A stretch of DNA of 32,000 bases, taken from positions 1-32,000 of the forward strand of contig JAFGTX010000296.1 of NCBI GenBank assembly GCA_016938815.1. Direction: 5' to 3'. Shown here piece by piece: positions 6,773 through 20,079 of the stretch (the first letter of the stretch is position 1; every line of letters starts with the position of its first letter). Origin of the DNA: Clostridia bacterium. GTDB taxonomy: Bacteria; Bacillota; Clostridia; Peptostreptococcales; Acidaminobacteraceae. The position numbers were made by a program, and so were the translations under genes. The notes beneath the pieces were generated by a model, which saw nothing but the letters and a program-made list of their open reading frames with translations, did not search any database and had not been told where the DNA came from.

Positions 6773-8776
6773 TTATGCTTCAAAGAAACTTTCATGATTC
6801 ACGAAGAAGTCGAATTTCGCAGGAATTTCTTTTACTGTGTGACTGTCTTTGTCCTCATAATGTGCTTGGATCGATTCGAGGATATGATCCCATGACCAAA
6901 GGCTATCATCAAGGCCGAGGTAGTCCTTAACGTTTTCTGAGCTAGTTGGTACGACTGGATGAAGCAGTGTCAGACAGACCTTAACGCCGTAGAACATGTC
7001 AGCAAGGACTTGTAGGCGCATTGCGTTGTTATCTTCAGCATCGGCAATCTTCATTTCTCTTGACCAGTATTTACTTAGTTTTCTGATGACGTTGTCTAGT
7101 GTGATGATGACACGGTGGAATTCATGTTGTGCCATGTTGCGCTCGTATTCGTAAACGGCTTTTTCCATCATATCTGTGATTTCGTCGCTGATCGCGTTGG
7201 TTGGAATCGCCCAGTTATTGTATTTTTCGCTTGTGTAGAAGCATGAACGCACCATACGGTTAAATACCTTTGTCAGTAGGAAACCGTCTTTGAGTACTGG
7301 ATCTTCAGCTTTGTTGGTGAAAGTTTCATCCAGTGCCATCGGGTTGAAGCTGACGCTTCTCTTTGAAAGGCCAAGGCTTAGGAAATGCATTCTAAGTTGG
7401 TCGCTCGTATAGTAGTCTAGCAACTCGTGTGCCATAGGTGGCTTGATTGCACCTGAACTGCTGGCTTTTTCATTCATAAAGAGTATATGGTGGTTGGCAA
7501 CCAGTGTTGGGAAGTTCATCTCTGAAATATCCAGTGCACTCATGTCTTTTGATGCACTAGGGTTTTCAGAAGCATAGTAACCCATCAACATAGCCATTTC
7601 AGGTAAGCCGTAGAAATGGATATTGTCTTCGCCAATGAACTGATAGACCTTTGCTTCTGGGTCTGTCCACCATTTGGTCCATGAATCCTTGCTGCCAATC
7701 GAATCCAAATAGGTTTTCGTAAAGGAAATTGGTGCCCAAAGTGACTCAGGCCATACCCAGAAAGTCAAATCTTTCAAATCCTCTTTTTCAGGTACAGGCA
7801 CACCCCATTCGATGTTACCGGTCAATCTGAAAGGCGTGATGGTTTTACCTGAACGGTAACGCACATTGCTGCCGTCTAGCAGTTTCTTTGCAACGTCACG
7901 TTCATCAAGAGAATTGAAGTTGAATGTCACCGATGGTTTCTTTTCGATATCTTCTAATGTACCACCAAGAGAAGCGATGAAGTCTTCTGAAAGCGGTTCG
8001 AATTCTTTTCTTGTAATATGAATTGCCGGTGGCAATAAGAACTCTTCCAGTGTACGGATTACAAGAGGTCTTACACTTCTGTCATTTTTGAGGTTTTCAA
8101 CAAGGGCTTTCAAAGGCTCTGCGAAACGCTCCAAATCGAAGTACCAGTTGCTTGTATTTCTAAGCTCTGGTTTTTCTCCGGAAAGCACACTGATCGGATC
8201 GATCAAATCCTCCGGTGGGTATTGATGTCCTAAGTCGCATTCGTCTGCATAACCTTTTTCGGAAGGACAGCCTTCATAAGGACATTTACCAAGGACTTGA
8301 CGACCATTTAAATAGATGTCGTGAATTGGATCGTAGAATTGAGGACAGCTCAACTCTTTTAAGAAACCGTGGTCATAAAGGAGGTTGAAAACCTCTTCAG
8401 AAACCTTATTGTGCTTCTTGCCGCTGTCGCCAAAGGCAGAAGTGGCATAAAGACTAAGATTGACGTCATAGTTTTCTAAAGTTTGTTTTTGTCTTACGTG
8501 GAAATTGTGAACATAGTCTTCTACAGTGATGTCCACGTTCTCTTTTTCACAGTGGTTTTTATGGCTGGTGATAATCGGTGAACCGTAGCAGTCGGTTCCG
8601 GAAACAAAGATGACGTTGTCTTTGCCGATTCTATCCTTTAAAAATCTTGCATAAGTGTCGGCGTGTACGAATACACCACCGATGTGGCCGAAGTGCAAAT
8701 CCTTATTGCCATATGGCATACCGCCGGTGATGACGGCACGCTTTGGAAATTCAGGTCTTCTAATGTGTTTATTCAT
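6773..8776 (-). CDS. Class I aminoacyl-tRNA ligase of the methionyl-tRNA synthetase family (divergent; KMSKS replaced by KASSS)
   Basis: GGMPYGNKDLHFGHIGG (HIGH region), GTDCYGSPI (cf. MetRS GTDEHG / DDSHGTPI), zinc-knuckle-like CPYEGCPSEKGYADECDLGH, WVWPESLWAPISF (cf. YVWLDAPIGY), YQFIGEDNIHFY (cf. YHFIGKDIVYFH). I prefer the ATG at 8776 (GAGGGAGGaattaccATG) over the track start at 8809. Confidence 0.8.
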   Translation of the reverse strand: MNKHIRRPEFPKRAVITGGMPYGNKDLHFGHIGGVFVHADTYARFLKDRIGKDNVIFVSGTDCYGSPIITSHKNHCEKENVDITVEDYVHNFHVRQKQTLENYDVNLSLYATSAFGDSGKKHNKVSEEVFNLLYDHGFLKELSCPQFYDPIHDIYLNGRQVLGKCPYEGCPSEKGYADECDLGHQYPPEDLIDPISVLSGEKPELRNTSNWYFDLERFAEPLKALVENLKNDRSVRPLVIRTLEEFLLPPAIHITRKEFEPLSEDFIASLGGTLEDIEKKPSVTFNFNSLDERDVAKKLLDGSNVRYRSGKTITPFRLTGNIEWGVPVPEKEDLKDLTFWVWPESLWAPISFTKTYLDSIGSKDSWTKWWTDPEAKVYQFIGEDNIHFYGLPEMAMLMGYYASENPSASKDMSALDISEMNFPTLVANHHILFMNEKASSSGAIKPPMAHELLDYYTSDQLRMHFLSLGLSKRSVSFNPMALDETFTNKAEDPVLKDGFLLTKVFNRMVRSCFYTSEKYNNWAIPTNAISDEITDMMEKAVYEYERNMAQHEFHRVIITLDNVIRKLSKYWSREMKIADAEDNNAMRLQVLADMFYGVKVCLTLLHPVVPTSSENVKDYLGLDDSLWSWDHILESIQAHYEDKDSHTVKEIPAKFDFFVNHESFFEA

Positions 8777-8825
8777 GGTAATTCCTCCCTCATACTTATC
8801 TTTATCCATTACGACTTGTTTTTAC

Positions 8826-9079
8826 TCAATTAAAAAGCCCCTACAGTTATTAACCGTAGGGGCGAGATATCGCGGTGCCACCCTATTTTGCTTAAATAAA
8901 GCCTTGTCGAGTACAGTCATACTCTAGTCCTATAACGCGAACAGACGTCATTGTATCATTTGCAATCCACAATGAAGCTCCAAGTCTTGTTTCCCAAACC
9001 ATGGTACTACCCACTTTCACCAACATGGGTTCTCTGTAAGTCCATTTGAAAGGTACTTTTCTTTTCACAGCCTCTAATA
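8826..9079 (-). promoter_or_regulatory. T-box riboswitch leader with terminator/antiterminator
   Basis: Minus-strand reading: AGAGA box (9035-9031); distal-loop GUUGGUGAAA (9024-9015) closed by ACCCAU/GUGGGU; T-box sequence AAAUAGGGUGGCACCGCG (8888-8871); terminator GCCCCUACGG (8863-8854) pairing with CUGUAGGGGC (8846-8837) followed by UUUUU. The UAGGG of the T-box can pair with CCCUA of the terminator 5' arm, forming the antiterminator. Confidence 0.85.
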
Positions 9080-12637: not shown

Positions 12638-14619
12638 GAAAGCATTTGCGAATAGTGGTGATAGCTGTGCTGCTTAGTCTACTATGTCATCAAAGCGCCT
12701 TTATGGCGTCAACCGAATGGACCGAACGGTCGATTATAATCGCAGGAGATGAGTACTTTCCGCCCTTTGAATACGTAGACACCAATGGCGTATACAAAGG
12801 GTTTAATATCGATATCATGCATGCGATTGCCATTGAGATGGGGTTGGATATTAATATCGTCCCAATGCGCTGGCGTGATGCTCGTATTGCCTTAGAAGCA
12901 GGCCGGGTAGATGTGATTGAGGGTATTACTGAAACTGATGAAAGAAGAGAGCGCTTGCTGTTTTCAGAGCCTCATTTGGTCACCTCTCAAACGATTTTCA
13001 TTTCTAAGGATAATGATTATATCAAGTCATTGAAGGATTTGGAAGACAAGGTCGTGGCAGTGCAGGAAAATGACGTGTCCATAGACCTTTTATCGACCGT
13101 GCCTCATATCAAGATCGTGACGGAGTCTAATCAACTGCATGCACTGGAACTGCTCGTAGAAGGGAAGGCAGACGCCTATGTGGGCAACCGTGAAACCGGT
13201 CTTTATTCCATTCAGAAGTACGAGTACTACGATCGGGTTAAAGTAATCGGTTCGACGATGAACCAGAAAAATTACTGTATCGCAGTGACCAGAGAGAATG
13301 AAGAACTGCTGAACATTCTCAATGAAGGTCTTAGAATCATCAAGAAAAACGGTATTTACGATAAGATTTACAATAAGTGGTTTGGGGAAGAATTTGCTTC
13401 TCCTCAAGTGATTTTCAAGAAGTACATTTACATGTTTTTTGTAGCGGTATGCCTCTTGCTGGGTATCGTCTGGGTCAATATGCGGATGAACAAGAAACTG
13501 AGAGAAGAGGTGGACAAGCGGACGGAGGAGCTTAAGAACTCCGACTTGTTCAAGGAACACATCATCAACAGTATTTCTGATGGTTTGATTACCTTTGACA
13601 CCAAAGGGGTGGTACAATCCCTTAATAAAAATGTACTGGAGATTTTGCAGGTAGACCCTCACGAAGCCATTGGTCATTTGCTGGACATGATCGATTTTTT
13701 AAAATTTATCGACAGAAAACTGTTTAGAAAGGCTTTGATTGAAGGTGTGTCCTTTATACGCGAAGAATCCGAGATTACCATTCTCGGTCATAATCGGGTC
13801 ATAGAATACAATATTTTACCATTAAAGGATCGTGTAGGTGCCATTCAAGGTATTACAATCACATTCAACGATGTAACGGTGCAACGCAAGAACAGCGAAC
13901 AGATTAAGCGCCGCGACAAATTTGAATCCATAGGACGCCTCACTGCCAATATCGCTCACGAGATTCGCAATCCGCTGACGGCCATTAAGACCTATATCGA
14001 GCTGATTCCTCGGAAAATCAACAATAAGGATTTTCAGGAGCAACTGGTAAAGGATGTGCCTCAAGTCATCGGACGCTTAAATGAGATGATTACAGAGCTT
14101 TTAGAGTACGCAAGACCGAGGGAAGCGAACAAAACGGTATTTGCCTTAGATCGGCCGATTATTGAAGTCTTGAGTTTGGTGGAGGGGGAAATTAATAAGA
14201 ATGCCATTCACTTGGAAACCGAACTGAATCCGGACTGCCACGTTAAAATGGACAGTCAGCAATTCAAGCAAATTCTGATTAATCTCGTGATTAACAGTAT
14301 TCAGGCAATCAAAAACGTTGAGCAACCAACGTTGATCATTAAGACAGTCAAGGACGACGCTGCGTGCTTTATTGAAGTGACGGATAACGGCATCGGTATT
14401 TCAGAGGAGGATCAGGCAGTGATTTTTGAACCTTTTTTCACAAAAAAATCAACAGGAACAGGGCTGGGGCTTTCTATTGCCCAGCAGTTGGCAGAAGAAA
14501 ATGACGGTTATATGACCGTGGACAGCACAGTAAGCGTGGGGACAACCATGCGACTTTATTTACCTCAGTGGGAAGAGGCTTGTAGGGAGGAAAGTTATGG
14601 GAAAAATATTGATCATTGA
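12634..14619 (+). CDS. Sensor histidine kinase with extracytoplasmic family-3 solute-binding (amino-acid-binding type) domain, TM, PAS, HisKA and HATPase
   Basis: N-terminal SBP_bac_3-like region (FPPFEYVDTNGVYKGFNIDIMHAIA...ADAYVGN...YDKIYNKWFG), TM helix YIYMFFVAVCLLLGIVWV, H-box AHEIRNPL, N box LVINSIQA, G boxes DNGIGI and GTGLGL. TTG start. Confidence 0.9.
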   Translation: MRKHLRIVVIAVLLSLLCHQSAFMASTEWTERSIIIAGDEYFPPFEYVDTNGVYKGFNIDIMHAIAIEMGLDINIVPMRWRDARIALEAGRVDVIEGITETDERRERLLFSEPHLVTSQTIFISKDNDYIKSLKDLEDKVVAVQENDVSIDLLSTVPHIKIVTESNQLHALELLVEGKADAYVGNRETGLYSIQKYEYYDRVKVIGSTMNQKNYCIAVTRENEELLNILNEGLRIIKKNGIYDKIYNKWFGEEFASPQVIFKKYIYMFFVAVCLLLGIVWVNMRMNKKLREEVDKRTEELKNSDLFKEHIINSISDGLITFDTKGVVQSLNKNVLEILQVDPHEAIGHLLDMIDFLKFIDRKLFRKALIEGVSFIREESEITILGHNRVIEYNILPLKDRVGAIQGITITFNDVTVQRKNSEQIKRRDKFESIGRLTANIAHEIRNPLTAIKTYIELIPRKINNKDFQEQLVKDVPQVIGRLNEMITELLEYARPREANKTVFALDRPIIEVLSLVEGEINKNAIHLETELNPDCHVKMDSQQFKQILINLVINSIQAIKNVEQPTLIIKTVKDDAACFIEVTDNGIGISEEDQAVIFEPFFTKKSTGTGLGLSIAQQLAEENDGYMTVDSTVSVGTTMRLYLPQWEEACREESYGKNIDH

Positions 14620-15958
14620 TGATGAAAAAACGATTTGCACCTCTCTTCAATTTGCCTTTGAAGATGATTATCAGGTCTTTACGGCCAATAATGTTTACGA
14701 ACTGGAAAAGATGTTGGCAGAAGAGAATTTTGATGTGGTGCTGTTGGATTTGAAATTTGGTAATGTGAGCGGACTAGATCTTATTGGTCCAATCAAGCAG
14801 TGCAACAAGCACACCGCTGTAATCATGATGACTGCATACGCCAGTGTCGAATCGTCTATAGAGGCGATGAAGCGAGGAGTTTACGATTACATCATAAAAC
14901 CGATAGATATTACGAAGTTGACATTCTTGATCCACAAAGCGATGGACTTCAAGCGTTTGAATGAACGTGTTAGTTTGTTAGAAAAAGTGGCAGAGAAAAG
15001 GGAGCAAAATCCTCAAATTGTGGGCTCCTCAAAAAAGATGCAGGATATCTTCCATATTATCGATAAGGTGAAAGACATCGAAATGAACGTTTTGATAGAG
15101 GGACCTAGTGGTACGGGTAAGGAACTGGTGGCCAGAGAGATTCACTATCGTGGCAAGCGTAAGGACCAGCCTTTTGAGGTGGTGAATTGCGGTGCTATTC
15201 CGAGCACTTTGATAGAAAGTGAGCTTTTTGGTTATGAGAAGGGCGCTTTTACAGGTGCTGCGGCTAAAAGGAAAGGCATGTTCGAACTGGCCAACAGTGG
15301 CACTTTGTTCCTAGATGAAATCGGTGAGATGGATTTACACGCCCAAGTTAAACTTTTAAGGGTTCTGCAGACTATGGAAATCTTTCCGCTGGGTTCTGAG
15401 AAAAGTAAAAAAGTCGATGTGCGTATTATCGCTGCGACCAATAAAGACCTTAAGGAAGAGGTCAGAAAAGGCAATTTTAGAGAAGACCTCTATTTCAGAC
15501 TCAATGTCATCTCCATTGGCATGCCGTCCCTCAATCAGCGTATTGAAGATTTGCCACTGCTCATTGAGCATTTCATCCAAAAAACGGCACTGGATTTTGA
15601 TTTGCCAGTAAAGAGCGTAAGCCGTGAGGCATACAATGCCCTTGAACACTATGAGTTTCCCGGAAACGTCAGAGAACTTCAAAATATTATCGAGCGTTCA
15701 GTAGTATTTGCTAGCAACGATGTCATTGAACTGGCGGATTTACCTGAGATGATTACGGAGCATCAGATCCCACTGAATCGGTCGGCTAAAATTGTTCCTA
15801 TTACTATCGGTATTACGCTGGCTGAAGTGGAGCGTATCATGATTGAGGAAACCTTGGCGCATAATGAGGGCAATCGAAGAAAAACGGCGGAACAGCTAGG
15901 GATTAGCGAGCGTAACCTGCGCTATAAAATCAAAGAATATGCAGAGGATGAATTCTAA
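14597..15958 (+). CDS. NtrC-family sigma-54-dependent response regulator (REC + AAA+ + Fis-type HTH)
   Basis: Receiver domain (DVVLLDLKF), Walker A GPSGTGKE, the sigma-54 contact loop ESELFGYEKGAFTGA (GAFTGA), and a C-terminal HTH RRKTAEQLGISERNLRYKI. Overlaps the kinase gene by 23 nt. Confidence 0.92.
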   Translation: MGKILIIDDEKTICTSLQFAFEDDYQVFTANNVYELEKMLAEENFDVVLLDLKFGNVSGLDLIGPIKQCNKHTAVIMMTAYASVESSIEAMKRGVYDYIIKPIDITKLTFLIHKAMDFKRLNERVSLLEKVAEKREQNPQIVGSSKKMQDIFHIIDKVKDIEMNVLIEGPSGTGKELVAREIHYRGKRKDQPFEVVNCGAIPSTLIESELFGYEKGAFTGAAAKRKGMFELANSGTLFLDEIGEMDLHAQVKLLRVLQTMEIFPLGSEKSKKVDVRIIAATNKDLKEEVRKGNFREDLYFRLNVISIGMPSLNQRIEDLPLLIEHFIQKTALDFDLPVKSVSREAYNALEHYEFPGNVRELQNIIERSVVFASNDVIELADLPEMITEHQIPLNRSAKIVPITIGITLAEVERIMIEETLAHNEGNRRKTAEQLGISERNLRYKIKEYAEDEF

Positions 15959-16082: not shown

Positions 16083-16098
16083 TGGCATTAAACTTGCT
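16083..16098 (+). promoter_or_regulatory. Sigma-54 (-24/-12) promoter
   Basis: TGGCAT TAAAC TTGCT compared with the consensus TGGCAC-N5-TTGCW, with exact GG-N10-GC spacing. It lies 125 nt downstream of the sigma-54 activator gene. Confidence 0.7.
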
Positions 16099-16108
16099 AT
16101 ATAATAGG

Positions 16109-16255
16109 ATGTTATGGTTGCGGTTATTCAAAACCCTAAATTAAAAGTTCTACTTCAATCTCCCTAGAACAGAATAACGCAACTGAAGTATAACGTCGCT
16201 TCCCCGAGCGATTGCAAAGGCTTGTTTCCCCGAACAAAGCCTTTGTTTATTTTTT
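16109..16255 (+). ncRNA. Candidate sigma-54-dependent small RNA with C-rich (UUCCCCGA) hairpin loops
   Basis: Bounded by the sigma-54 promoter and a strong terminator. Long stem 16116-16129 / 16172-16183. Hairpin CGCT/AGCG (16197-16210) with loop TCCCCG. Terminator stem 16215-16226 / 16233-16245 with loop TCCCCG, followed by TTTATTTTTT. The 5' end is predicted only from promoter geometry. Confidence 0.5.
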
Positions 16256-16294
16256 GGAGTACAAAAAAATTACAAGACTTCAACAAAATACTTG

Positions 16295-16323
16295 TTGACC
16301 GATGCTTGAAAAAGGTCTATACT
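16295..16323 (+). promoter_or_regulatory. Sigma-A-type promoter for the aro leader
   Basis: TTGACC (16295-16300), a 17-nt spacer, then TATACT (16318-16323). Confidence 0.65.
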
Positions 16324-16356
16324 TCTAATCAATATAAAAAGTGGAAGGTGTTCAAC

Positions 16357-16479
16357 ATGATGAACTTAGCAAATCAATTGACCACAACTGCATATGAGTA
16401 TTTTTATGGTTTTACTTGGGCTTACTATTTTAGCGCAGGTTATTCGTCATACAAAAAAATACTGGCAGTTTCTACTTAA
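16357..16479 (+). CDS. Aromatic-rich leader peptide (40 aa) of the aroF-tyrA operon
   Basis: GGAAGGTG lies 6 nt upstream of ATGATG. The peptide is MMNLANQLTTTAYEYFYGFTWAYYFSAGYSSYKKILAVST, with 7 Tyr, 3 Phe and 1 Trp among residues 13-32. It sits between a promoter and a terminator directly upstream of aromatic amino-acid biosynthesis genes. Confidence 0.55.
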   Translation: MMNLANQLTTTAYEYFYGFTWAYYFSAGYSSYKKILAVST

Positions 16480-16518
16480 GGGAAAAACCACAACAAATTA
16501 TACAGACGTATGAATTTT

Positions 16519-16555
16519 AGGAGTGTTCCGTTGGGACACTCCTTTTTCGATTTTT
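16519..16555 (+). terminator. Intrinsic terminator (putative attenuator) upstream of aroF
   Basis: AGGAGTGTTC (16519-16528) pairs with GGACACTCCT (16534-16543), followed by TTTTTCGATTTTT. It ends 17 nt before the aroF RBS. Confidence 0.75.
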
Positions 16556-16572
16556 GAGAGGGAGGAAGAACA

Positions 16573-17415
16573 ATGCAAAAGGGTATGGAGAAATTAATGA
16601 AAAATGCACCACTCGCAGTAAGAAAAGAAGGCATGACAGATACGATCATAGAAGTAAAAGGTGTGAAAATCGGTGGCGGTCATATCACCATGATGGCCGG
16701 TCCATGTTCCGTTGAATCAAGGGAGCAGATTATGGCAACGGCAGCGGAAGTCAAGGCTGCAGGTGCACAAATCCTAAGAGGTGGTGCATTCAAGCCGAGA
16801 ACCTCTCCATACTCATTCCAAGGTCTTGGTGAAGAAGGTCTCAAGCTGCTAAAAGAAGCGGGTGAAAAATACAACATGCCTGTGATTACTGAAGTCATGG
16901 AAATAGACACCTTCGACTTGGTAGAATCCTATGCAGACATTTTACAGATCGGGGCAAGAAACATGTCAAACTTCTCGCTTTTGAAAAGAGCAGGTAAGTC
17001 TAAAAAACCGATTTTGCTTAAACGTGGCATGTCTTCCACGATTGAAGAATTCCTGATGTCAGCAGAATACATCTTAGCGAATGGCAATCCTCAAGTTATC
17101 TTATGTGAACGCGGTATCCGTACTTTCGAAACGATGATGCGCAATACCTTAGACTTAGCATCGATTCCACTCATCAAAGAATTGAGCCATTTACCGATTA
17201 TCATTGATCCTTCTCATGGCACAGGCATTAGGGAACTTGTGGCACCTATGTCAAAGGCTGCCGTAGTCATCGGAGGAGACGGTCTTATGGTGGAAGTACA
17301 CCATAAACCGGAAGAGGCGTTATGTGATGGTCCTCAAAGTCTAACACCAGAAATATTCACAGCGTTGATGGCAGAGCTTAATGGTTTGTCCAACTTTTCG
17401 TTTAGCAGGGGGTAA
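16573..17415 (+). CDS. aroF: 3-deoxy-7-phosphoheptulonate (DAHP) synthase, class I-beta
   Basis: [29 protein letters not shown] and IIDPSHG motifs typical of the KDO8PS-like DAHP synthases. GGGAGGA RBS. Confidence 0.9.
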
Positions 17416-17419
17416 TGTT

Positions 17420-18268
17420 ATGGGGAAAGAGTTATCTAAAATAGCCATCATTGGCCTGGGACTTATTGGTGGTTCAATTACAAAAGCCTTGAAAGCTGCT
17501 GGCTTTAAGGGCGAAGTGGTCGGGATAGACTCGAATCTTACATCAGTAGCATACGGCCTTCAAAATGGTTTGATCACAAGTGGTGGTACGACGATCAATA
17601 ATCTGGTCATCGGTTCGGATCTGGTTATTGTTGCAACGCATTTGAGATTTTTCGAGGAGGTTGTACAGGACTTGTTGGCGTTGGATTCGTCTTTGCTTAT
17701 TACTGATGTGGGCAGCGTAAAAAAGTGTGAATTCATTCATGAATTGGTGGCAACCAAGAAACTTAATTTTATCGGTGGACATCCACTGGCAGGTTCTGAA
17801 AAGACAGGTATTGAAAATGGTAGTGCCAAACTCTTCGAAGACAAGCCATACTACATCATCCCGTACAAAAACAAAGTTTCAGATACGGCTAAAGTCTTGA
17901 GTTTTGTTGAGTTGATAGGTGCTAAGCCAATCATTATGGAAGAAGAAAAGCATGATGCGCTCATGTCCATGACCAGTCATGTGCCTCACTTGTTGGCTGC
18001 TCTACAGATGAATATCCTATTTGAGCATCAGTCAGAAGAAATCATAGAGCATATCGGTGAGGGCTTCAAGGATGCAACGAGGATCGCATCCAGCTGTCCT
18101 GATCTATGGTCGGATATCGTACTCTTTAACCGTGAAAAAATCCTTTCTCAGGTTGAACAACTGCAGTCTGAAATGAGCAAACTTACCGACCTACTTCAGC
18201 AAAACGACCGTAATCAAGTATACAACTACTTTAAGCAGGCTTCAAATTTTAGGAATCAATTAAGCTAG
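17420..18268 (+). CDS. tyrA: Prephenate dehydrogenase
   Basis: Rossmann motif IAIIGLGLIGGS, GGHPLAGSEKTG and the catalytic-region SHVPHLLA. I prefer the ATG at 17420 over the track start at 17381, which overlaps aroF. Confidence 0.85.
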   Translation: MGKELSKIAIIGLGLIGGSITKALKAAGFKGEVVGIDSNLTSVAYGLQNGLITSGGTTINNLVIGSDLVIVATHLRFFEEVVQDLLALDSSLLITDVGSVKKCEFIHELVATKKLNFIGGHPLAGSEKTGIENGSAKLFEDKPYYIIPYKNKVSDTAKVLSFVELIGAKPIIMEEEKHDALMSMTSHVPHLLAALQMNILFEHQSEEIIEHIGEGFKDATRIASSCPDLWSDIVLFNREKILSQVEQLQSEMSKLTDLLQQNDRNQVYNYFKQASNFRNQLS

Positions 18269-19440: not shown

Positions 19441-19908
19441 ATGGATATGAACGACAAAACAGCCCATGACAAGGCGTTACTTTTAGATCAGCAATTGTGC
19501 TTTAGATTATACAAGGCTTCTCGCTTGATGATTCGCTTATATACGCCTCATCTGGATAAACTGGGATTGACCTATCCTCAGTATCTGGTTTTACTGGTGC
19601 TTTGGGAAAAGAAATCCATTGGTTTCAAGGAACTGGGTGAGCAGCTGCAGTTGAAAACAGGTACATTGACACCGGTAGTGCAACGTTTGATACACAGCGG
19701 CTACTTAAGCAAGGAAAAACATCCGGAAGACGATAGAAAGACGTGTATTGCCATTACTCAAGCGGGACTCGATTTGATTCCGGAAGCTAGAAAGATACCG
19801 AGAGAGTTGGCTAAGGCACTCAATCTGACTGAGGCAGAATTTTTAGATGCTATTGAAATGCTGGATGCACTCAATGAAAAATTGATGATTGCGGTATTTG
19901 ATGAATAA
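19441..19908 (+). CDS. ohrR: MarR-family organic hydroperoxide resistance regulator OhrR
   Basis: LDQQLCFRLYKASR (the sensing Cys context of OhrR), LTYPQYLVLLVLWE and TGTLTPVVQRL closely parallel B. subtilis OhrR. I prefer the ATG at 19441 (AAGGAGtggaATG) over the track start at 19354, which crosses the preceding terminator. Confidence 0.8.
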   Translation: MDMNDKTAHDKALLLDQQLCFRLYKASRLMIRLYTPHLDKLGLTYPQYLVLLVLWEKKSIGFKELGEQLQLKTGTLTPVVQRLIHSGYLSKEKHPEDDRKTCIAITQAGLDLIPEARKIPRELAKALNLTEAEFLDAIEMLDALNEKLMIAVFDE

Positions 19909-19911
19909 TGA

Positions 19912-19952
19912 GAACTGTGGTGGGCATATATGTCTTACCACAGTTTTTTTTT
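19912..19952 (+). terminator. Intrinsic terminator after ohrR
   Basis: AACTGTGGT (19912-19920) pairs with ACCACAGTT (19936-19944), followed by T10. Confidence 0.75.
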
Positions 19953-19976
19953 TATCAATTTTTTTGGTTACATTAC

Positions 19977-20005
19977 TTGACAAAGAAAAAAAACAAGGCT
20001 ATAAT
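19977..20005 (+). promoter_or_regulatory. Consensus sigma-A promoter of the glutathione peroxidase gene
   Basis: TTGACA (19977-19982), a 17-nt spacer, then TATAAT (20000-20005). Confidence 0.75.
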
Positions 20006-20034
20006 CAATCTTGTAAGATCAATCTTGCAAGATT
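20006..20034 (+). promoter_or_regulatory. Tandem palindromic operator (probable OhrR box)
   Basis: CAATCTTGTAAGAT (20006-20019) is followed immediately by CAATCTTGCAAGAT (20020-20033). The second contains the perfect palindrome AATCTTGCAAGATT (20021-20034). It abuts the -10 box. Confidence 0.6.
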
Positions 20035-20079
20035 TAAAAAAATACATAAATCTAATGTAAGAAATAGGAGGAATTTGAT

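Follow-up and report, generated by a model that had tools for sequence, protein, structure and literature searches.

A probable ribosome-mediated leader-peptide attenuator of aroF-tyrA, from a large family of aromatic leaders in Clostridia and related Firmicutes

The 32,000 nucleotides (nt) analysed here, positions 1 to 32,000 of contig JAFGTX010000296.1 from a Clostridia bacterium (the window), carry a short open reading frame (ORF) rich in tyrosine, phenylalanine and tryptophan codons, followed by a terminator and then by aroF and tyrA. With a probability of about 0.8, this element is a ribosome-mediated leader-peptide transcription attenuator of aroF-tyrA, belonging to a large family of such aro leaders in Clostridia and related Firmicutes. 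The copy in the window is a clear member of that family, with a short ORF and an unusually weak antiterminator. The leader and the two genes behind it are arranged as follows.

16295-16323 (+): sigma-70-type promoter, TTGACC (16295-16300) and TATACT (16318-16323) separated by 17 nt, matching the consensus at 10 of 12 positions.
16343-16350 (+): Shine-Dalgarno sequence (SD) of the leader, GGAAGGTG; the ATG at 16357 begins 6 nt further on.
16357-16479 (+): leader ORF of 40 codons, with the product MMNLANQLTTTAYEYFYGFTWAYYFSAGYSSYKKILAVST.
16393-16452 (+): regulatory codon core, codons 13-32, containing 7 Tyr, 3 Phe and 1 Trp codons (11 of 20).
16519-16556 (+): intrinsic terminator, an 11-bp stem (16519-16529 with 16533-16543) with the loop GUU, then a U-tract.
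16573-17415 (+): DAHP synthase (3-deoxy-7-phosphoheptulonate synthase), type I-beta, short form (NCBIfam, 449 bits with a cut-off of 335).
17381-18268 (+): prephenate dehydrogenase (tyrA), second gene of the operon (model matches at E 7e-64, under the curated cut-offs).

An earlier first-pass annotation of this DNA had described the promoter, the ribosome-binding site and the ORF, and all are present at these positions. Its count of 11 aromatic residues among residues 13 to 32 also holds, and this density exceeds that of every other segment in the window: of the 681 stretches in all six frames that run for 25 codons or more without a stop, the runner-up reaches 9 of 20. The GC-rich hairpin with a U-tract that it had placed after the ORF reads AGGAGTGTTCC-GTT-GGGACACTCCT (16519-16543), then TTTTTCGATTTTT, with six G-C pairs among its 11 bp; it begins 39 nt past the stop codon and has a predicted strength of -15 to -18 kcal/mol. 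Profile matches likewise support the assignment of the downstream genes to DAHP synthase and then prephenate dehydrogenase, and the overall proposal of a ribosome-mediated aromatic leader-peptide attenuator is supported by the comparisons below.

The DAHP synthase is 280 amino acids long, and its residues 7-274 align to positions 64-331 of a 338-position profile, leaving it without the N-terminal ferredoxin-like regulatory domain of about 60 residues (PF18152) that is found in most relatives, including that of Clostridioides difficile. Because this domain is absent, allosteric feedback may be missing, which would leave the leader as the main control of aroF in the window.

Relatives were sought with the DAHP synthase as query against reference genomes, one per species, and the best 80 loci were kept. 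A homologous aromatic mini-ORF with a terminator lies upstream of the DAHP synthase gene in 21 of these best 80, the kind of conservation ahead of aroF that the first-pass annotation had thought worth looking for. All 21 hosts are Firmicutes, belonging to Clostridia, Negativicutes or Desulfotomaculum; they include Tissierellaceae, Peptostreptococcaceae, Fusibacter, Serpentinicella, Anoxynatronum, Geosporobacter, Alkaliphilus, Clostridium, Caproiciproducens, Sporomusa and Desulfotomaculum. The leader peptides share a motif that is roughly [FY]-x-W-G-[FY]-Y-F-S-A-G-[YF]-F-x-x-K. A terminator stands between the leader ORF and the gene in all 22 loci examined (the window and the 21), and in an enlarged set it is found 77-170 nt past the conserved Ser codon of the motif in 101 of 103 loci.

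Further searches enlarged the family. A profile of the leader peptide matched 46 small proteins, including one from C. difficile and Amet_0645 of Alkaliphilus metalliredigens; any annotation that these proteins carry is 'hypothetical protein'. A DNA-pattern scan of metagenomes added 120 loci, the majority with a leader ORF, and a search of a plasmid collection gave no match. Overall, 111 loci have a leader-like ORF, with a DAHP synthase gene at most 1.6 kb away in 82; the remainder either are truncated where a contig ends or carry the leader before pheA, aroK, aroB-aroA-aroC, or genes for a LarA-like racemase and a symporter. Across the family the leader core (22 codons) is 28% Phe, 20% Tyr and 5% Trp, 53% aromatic in all. 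A DNA profile (nhmmer) built from 51 members, excluding the window and its closest relative, matches the window exactly once, at 16336-16474 (55 bits, E 1.8e-16). That closest relative, locus L014, encodes a DAHP synthase with 85% identity to that of the window, likewise short and without the PF18152 domain, and it retains the leader ORF, the core and the terminator. In the terminator stem a compensatory change between the two, GUG/CAC to GCG/CGC, preserves the pairing.

Some members of the family are arranged differently. Tandem aro leader units precede a single DAHP synthase gene in Fusibacter and Desulfotomaculum hosts (L004, 2266-2430 and 2465-2731; L023, 2121-2318 and 2451-2567). In L137 and L191 the leader stands ahead of genes for a LarA-like racemase (Lar_N/LarA_C) and a sodium:solute symporter, in place of a biosynthetic gene; the pair may serve to salvage an aromatic 2-hydroxy acid.

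The leader RNA of the window can be divided into the following segments, some of which compete for the same partners.

16339-16346 (+): segment A, AAGUGGAA, overlapping the SD; 5' strand of the outer helix A:B, with 16470-16477 as its partner in the minimum free energy (MFE) fold.
16386-16470 (+): extended leader hairpin, with helices 16386-16391:16465-16470, 16397-16404:16456-16463 and 16405-16409:16447-16451.
16414-16440 (+): apical hairpin inside the core, with helices 16414-16418:16436-16440 and 16420-16422:16432-16434.
16470-16490 (+): segment B, whose 5' part UUCUACUU (16470-16477) pairs with A.
16477-16490 (+): 3' part of segment B, UAAGGGAAAAACCA, overlapping the stop codon; candidate 5' strand of the antiterminator.
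16498-16513 (+): spacer hairpin UUAUAC/GUAUGA between segment B and the terminator; L014 has a hairpin at the matching place.
16519-16532 (+): segment C, the 5' arm and loop of the terminator.

The extended leader hairpin is imperfect. Its U-rich 5' arm consists of aromatic codons, its A-rich 3' arm includes the AAAAAA run of a Lys-Lys pair, and the apical hairpin sits at its tip. The outer helix A:B (16339-16346 with 16470-16477) connects the SD region with the last part of the ORF.

In the family, segment B lies 40-60 nt past the Ser codon and pairs with segment C, that is, with the 3' part of the terminator 5' arm and the loop. The pairing partners are specific to each locus: CUAAUGAGU with ACUCAUUAG, GCAUGAG with CUCAUGU, AUAUGAG with CUCAUAU, UUCUAAGA with UCUUAGAA, AUACUUAAAGA with UCUUUAAGUA, and AUAAAUUCAGACC with GGUCUGAGUUUA. 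RNAalifold on MAFFT alignments recovered the apical stem only; since region A varies too much for alignment, A:B and B:C were assessed by swapping partners between loci. Native B:C duplexes have a mean energy of -10.9 kcal/mol, compared with -8.4 kcal/mol when terminators are swapped (z -7.5, reached in 0 of 2000 permutations), and for A:B the mean falls from -14.6 with swapped partners to -22.8 with native ones (z -17). When B was reversed as a control for composition, the native pairing still stood out (p 0.009 for B:C and p 4e-9 for A:B). Among the non-redundant loci, 22 are of the AUGAG/CUCAU type, and in all 22 the base adjoining this core forms a standard pair (A-U in 13, C-G in 5, U-A in 3 and G-U in 1).

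In 41 of 55 loci segment B falls within the ORF; in a further 13, a ribosome positioned on the stop codon would cover it, making 54 of 55. In the window, segment B at +46 to +59 from the Ser codon is in the same register as the covarying B of the family. The first-pass annotation had been unable to define a clean antiterminator by eye, and a search of the window alone also gave none that was convincing, with the terminator in the MFE fold for every 5' truncation; at the level of the family, however, the antiterminator becomes visible through covariation. A different helix that it had put forward, between TGGTTTT (16407-16413) and AAAACCA (16484-16490), does join exact complements, but we dropped it because it is absent from the MFE folds and from L014, and it has no comparative support.

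Arranged as in a classical attenuator, these elements suggest the following mechanism. Transcription would start about 7 nt past the -10 box, and a ribosome would load at the leader SD and translate the 40-codon ORF, the centre of which is about half Tyr, Phe and Trp codons. By default, the 5' half of the ORF would fold with its 3' half (A:B and the apical hairpin), the terminator (C with its 3' arm, D) would form, and transcription would stop before aroF. With ample charged tRNA-Tyr, tRNA-Phe and tRNA-Trp, the ribosome would reach the stop codon and cover B, and the terminator would again form. If any of the three charged tRNAs were scarce, the ribosome would stall in the aromatic core, keeping the 5' arm of the leader hairpin open and B free. 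Free B could then capture C before the 3' arm of the terminator is made, and RNA polymerase would read on into aroF-tyrA. The helix A:B with the inner leader hairpin would thereby serve as anti-antiterminator, B:C as antiterminator and C:D as terminator. In this scheme stalling would be the cause of read-through, all three amino acids would be sensed, and the weak B:C pairing of the window would have to suffice. A single leader may read Phe, Tyr and Trp charging jointly, for a Clostridia regulon that would take in aroF, aroB, aroK, pheA and even a LarA-like racemase with its transporter.

Folding of transcripts cut at the terminator loop agrees in part with this scheme. Across the family, sequestration of the terminator 5' arm averages 0.52 when the ribosome is stalled and 0.28 when it has reached the stop codon (p 7e-5), and the corresponding values for the window are 0.7 and 0.0.

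Several observations weigh against the attenuator as proposed. The best B:C pairing in the window, UAAGGGAAAAACCA (16477-16490) with AGGAGUGUUCCGUU (16519-16532), reaches only -6.7 kcal/mol, compared with a mean of -9.5 for shuffled sequences; that of L014 reaches -5.0 kcal/mol, placing the two among the weakest of the family, and comparison of the window with L014 reveals no compensatory change that bears on B:C. The first-pass annotation had looked to folding with and without ribosome-covered codons for mutually exclusive structures, but equilibrium folds always keep the terminator: it wins in 55 of 55 loci under every ribosome mask, and no switch is reproduced. Since the terminator is favoured at equilibrium throughout, antitermination would have to be kinetic. 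In the cut transcripts, untranslated RNA sequesters the terminator arm at 0.48, close to the 0.52 of the stalled state, and so 'superattenuation' is not reproduced by this simple model. Lastly, segment A lies upstream of the aromatic codons, not on them, and a stalled ribosome would have to be presumed to block A:B.

The weak pairing raises the question of whether the copy in the window is a decayed or always-terminating relic, with a dead antiterminator and a fixed low read-through into aroF-tyrA. We consider this unlikely. It would account for a B:C energy worse than that of shuffled sequences and equally poor in L014, and it would suit both the strong terminator and a DAHP synthase that is also without its N-terminal regulatory domain. 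Against it, the ORF, the SD, the aromatic core, the apical hairpin, the position of B and the terminator are all intact, and they have been kept between the window and L014 at the distance implied by DAHP synthases that are 85% identical, down to the compensatory change in the terminator stem. Moreover, the weak B:C pairing occurs in the family register, and in the cut-transcript folding it is lost exactly when the ribosome is on the stop codon.

In the family, the strands of the apical hairpin are UGG-GGC-U (Trp-Gly) and AGC-GCN-GG (Ser-Ala-Gly), enclosing a loop of Phe/Tyr codons. In the window, ACUUG/GCU (Trp-Ala codons) pairs with AGC/CAGGU (Ser-Ala-Gly codons), again around Tyr/Phe codons, with GCU (Ala) replacing GGC and a shift of one base. 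In a set picked independently of the motif, 92.9% of the cells of the stem are paired, and the covariation score is 0.318, compared with 0.226 for shuffles and reached by 0 of 500 of them. The compensatory changes alter the peptide: CAAAGCU/AGCUUUG gives QS…SFG in L018, QS…SFG is also found in L084 and QG…SVG in L023, and CUGCAGCUA/UAGCUACAG gives CS…SYS in L004. As judged from these sequences, the conservation of 'WG…SAG' in the peptide is that of the paired strands of an RNA hairpin, and the family illustrates how an RNA stem within a coding region can mimic a 'conserved peptide'.

A role for the peptide in addition to that of the codons is improbable. Such a hybrid sensor would use the near-invariant nascent peptide (aromatic-Ser-x-Gly-aromatic) to add pausing or arrest in the exit tunnel to the sensing of hungry codons. 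It is favoured in that the RNA stem accounts only partly for the invariance of Ser and Gly and for the aromatic residues on either side, whereas the changes from WG…SAG to QS…SFG speak against a strict requirement for the peptide.

Conversely, the RNA might act without the ORF: a trans factor (protein, uncharged tRNA or small molecule) would bind the conserved hairpin and control the terminator, the ORF being incidental. The apical hairpin and the A:B helix are indeed conserved as RNA structure, and T-boxes or RNA-binding proteins are the usual control of amino-acid operons in Firmicutes. Nevertheless, this reading is quite improbable in view of the signs of translation. An SD-like core with an ATG, 40-108 nt before the conserved Ser codon, is found in the leader frame in 46 of 55 non-redundant loci, but in only 3 and 1 in the other two frames. 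Insertions and deletions in the core are multiples of three across the family. Phe and Tyr codons swap freely between members, and the hairpin loop always consists of these codons despite its variable sequence. The stop codon is also placed such that the ribosome could cover B in 54 of 55 loci. For the leader, Rfam gave nothing at the gathering threshold in a scan of the whole window, and cmscan gave no relevant match, T-box included, at E up to 10 for 16150-16650; the C. difficile leader likewise had no Rfam match at E up to 1.

A very improbable alternative is that the product of the mini-ORF is a small hydrophobic protein with a function of its own, or a TnaC-like arrest peptide sensing free aromatic amino acids in the ribosome tunnel. 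The motif [FY]xW-G-[FY]-Y-F-S-A-G-[YF]-F is strikingly conserved and 46 of these ORFs have been called as genes for hypothetical proteins, yet the conserved non-aromatic residues are those of the RNA stem strands, which change together at the expense of the peptide, and 108 of the 129 codons for Ser read AGC. In addition, neither the C-terminal part nor the length of the ORF (36-70 codons) is conserved, an excess of product would make no sense as the inducer of a biosynthetic operon, and the leader peptides match no Pfam or NCBIfam family. TRAP-type (G/U)AG repeats were rejected on reading the sequence because the UAG triplets, which arise at UUU-AGC junctions, are irregularly spaced (at least 6 nt) rather than 2-3 nt apart.

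Other features of the window lie outside the attenuator. Between a gene for a sigma-54-type response regulator (14597-15958) and the aro leader is a conserved non-coding unit at 16083-16262 (+). It opens with a sigma-54-like promoter, TGGCAT-N5-TTGCT, which in L014 is the canonical TGGCAC-N5-TTGCT, and continues with about 150 nt that are highly conserved with L014, including the C-rich blocks CAAUCUCCC, GCUUCCCCGAGC and UUUCCCCGAA, up to an intrinsic terminator at its end. The unit has no Rfam match and looks like a sigma-54-dependent small RNA. In L014 an insertion of about 2 kb (635-2619) separates this unit from the aro leader; it is absent from the window (16268-16278). A full-length T-box (8855-9077, -; 108 bits) lies upstream of a 678-amino-acid ORF at 6773-8809. 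The second most aromatic ORF in the window (19908-20060, +) is an artefact in which the T-run of a terminator hairpin is read as Phe codons; this hairpin is followed by the promoter of a glutathione peroxidase gene.

In other lineages, unrelated aromatic mini-ORFs with a strong terminator precede type I-beta DAHP synthase genes (L022, L054, L065, L027, L051, L053, L080, L072, L029 and L034). Those from metagenome-assembled genomes of Christensenellaceae (L022) and Oscillospiraceae (L054) contain runs of 5-6 Tyr; others read NLNYWFSYYYFGG in Syntrophales/Syntrophaceae, FWWCWWWC in Desulfacinum and YSYNFFYFFYNFF in Deferribacter. Leader-peptide control of DAHP synthase seems to have arisen many times.

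In the accepted picture, aromatic amino-acid genes of Firmicutes are under the control of T-boxes, TRAP or repressors, and leader peptides are rare. With more than 100 loci in the present family, classical leader-peptide attenuation would instead be the usual front end of clostridial aromatic operons. The view of the first-pass annotation that the arrangement would be distinctive in Firmicutes therefore does not stand: it is common at the head of such operons, and aroF leaders have already been published for Corynebacterium and Acholeplasma. The aro leader would surprise those who presume T-box control in Firmicutes, although it involves no new principle. In the literature outside subscription we found no paper describing the clostridial family, and no Rfam, Pfam or NCBIfam model covers it. 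While the principle of leader-peptide attenuation is known, this large and apparently unannotated family seems to be new. It would provide a natural case of multi-input sensing, with three amino acids in one leader, and could be of use in genome annotation, in the engineering of aromatic production in Clostridia and as a compact sensor of aromatic starvation.

The family also bears on an observation in C. difficile, where the leader ORF lies directly ahead of aroF-aroB-aroA-aroC-pheA-aroE. A promoter, TTGACA...TATAAT, is found at the place equivalent to that of the window, the predicted terminator is GAGAACUCAUUAGUGAGUUCUC-U6, and segment B is CUGGUGAG. Fuchs et al. (PMC8237595) included aroF in a list of C. 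difficile genes whose 5' untranslated region shows premature termination of unexplained origin, and the leader and its terminator sit exactly in the region reported. The aro leader probably explains this termination, and the family supplies a concrete mechanism for it, with defined nucleotides.

Among known systems, the aroR leader upstream of aroF in Corynebacterium glutamicum is described as an attenuator with Phe-Tyr-Phe codons (Neshat et al. 2014 via PMC11802643). It resembles the leader of the window in preceding a DAHP-synthase operon, in its mixed aromatic codons and in the increase of read-through upon ribosome stalling; it differs in belonging to Actinobacteria, in having a run of three aromatic codons rather than about 11 of 20, and in responding to Phe limitation only (PMC11802643). 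The two are likened by description, and a sequence relationship is not expected. In Acholeplasma, the aroF-associated motif uORFC-13-1 contains a putative upstream ORF, complete with SD and start codon, in which a U-run codes for Phe (Brewer et al. 2021, PMC8632094). Like the aro leader, it has an additional base-paired substructure and an intrinsic terminator just downstream. It is found only ahead of aroF and, again comparing by description, differs from the aro leader in being reported from Acholeplasma and environmental sequences only, with 24 representatives and 'at least one' Phe (PMC8632094).

The T-box, usual in Firmicutes, is also a sensor of tRNA charging that stands before amino-acid genes and chooses between terminator and antiterminator, but it is untranslated and binds uncharged tRNA directly, and no T-box match is found at the leader, whereas the T-box at 8855-9077 scores 108 bits. 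The Lactococcus leu/phe leader (Rfam) is a leader-peptide attenuator in a Firmicute. A further one, the his leader of the Bacillus cereus group, has been described as a 'regular' leader-peptide attenuator (Naville & Gautheret 2010, PMC2965389). Both resemble the aro leader as 'regular' attenuators that replace T-boxes in Firmicutes, and both differ from it in their amino acids and operons and in their narrow taxonomic range; they show no similarity in sequence, as no Rfam family matches the leader of the window or that of C. difficile.

The same logic is seen in pheL-pheA and trpL-trpEDCBA of Escherichia coli, which share with the attenuator proposed here a short ORF rich in cognate codons, alternative 1:2, 2:3 and 3:4 helices and an intrinsic terminator. 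In these systems too, the terminator is more stable than the antiterminator and the choice between them is kinetic. However, pheL and trpL (Rfam Phe_leader and Trp_leader) respond to one amino acid each, whereas the leader of the window encodes three and matches no Rfam leader. The architecture differs as well: in the aro leader, regulatory codons occupy both arms of the conserved hairpin as well as its loop, with the outer 5' strand upstream of these codons, at the SD or close to it.

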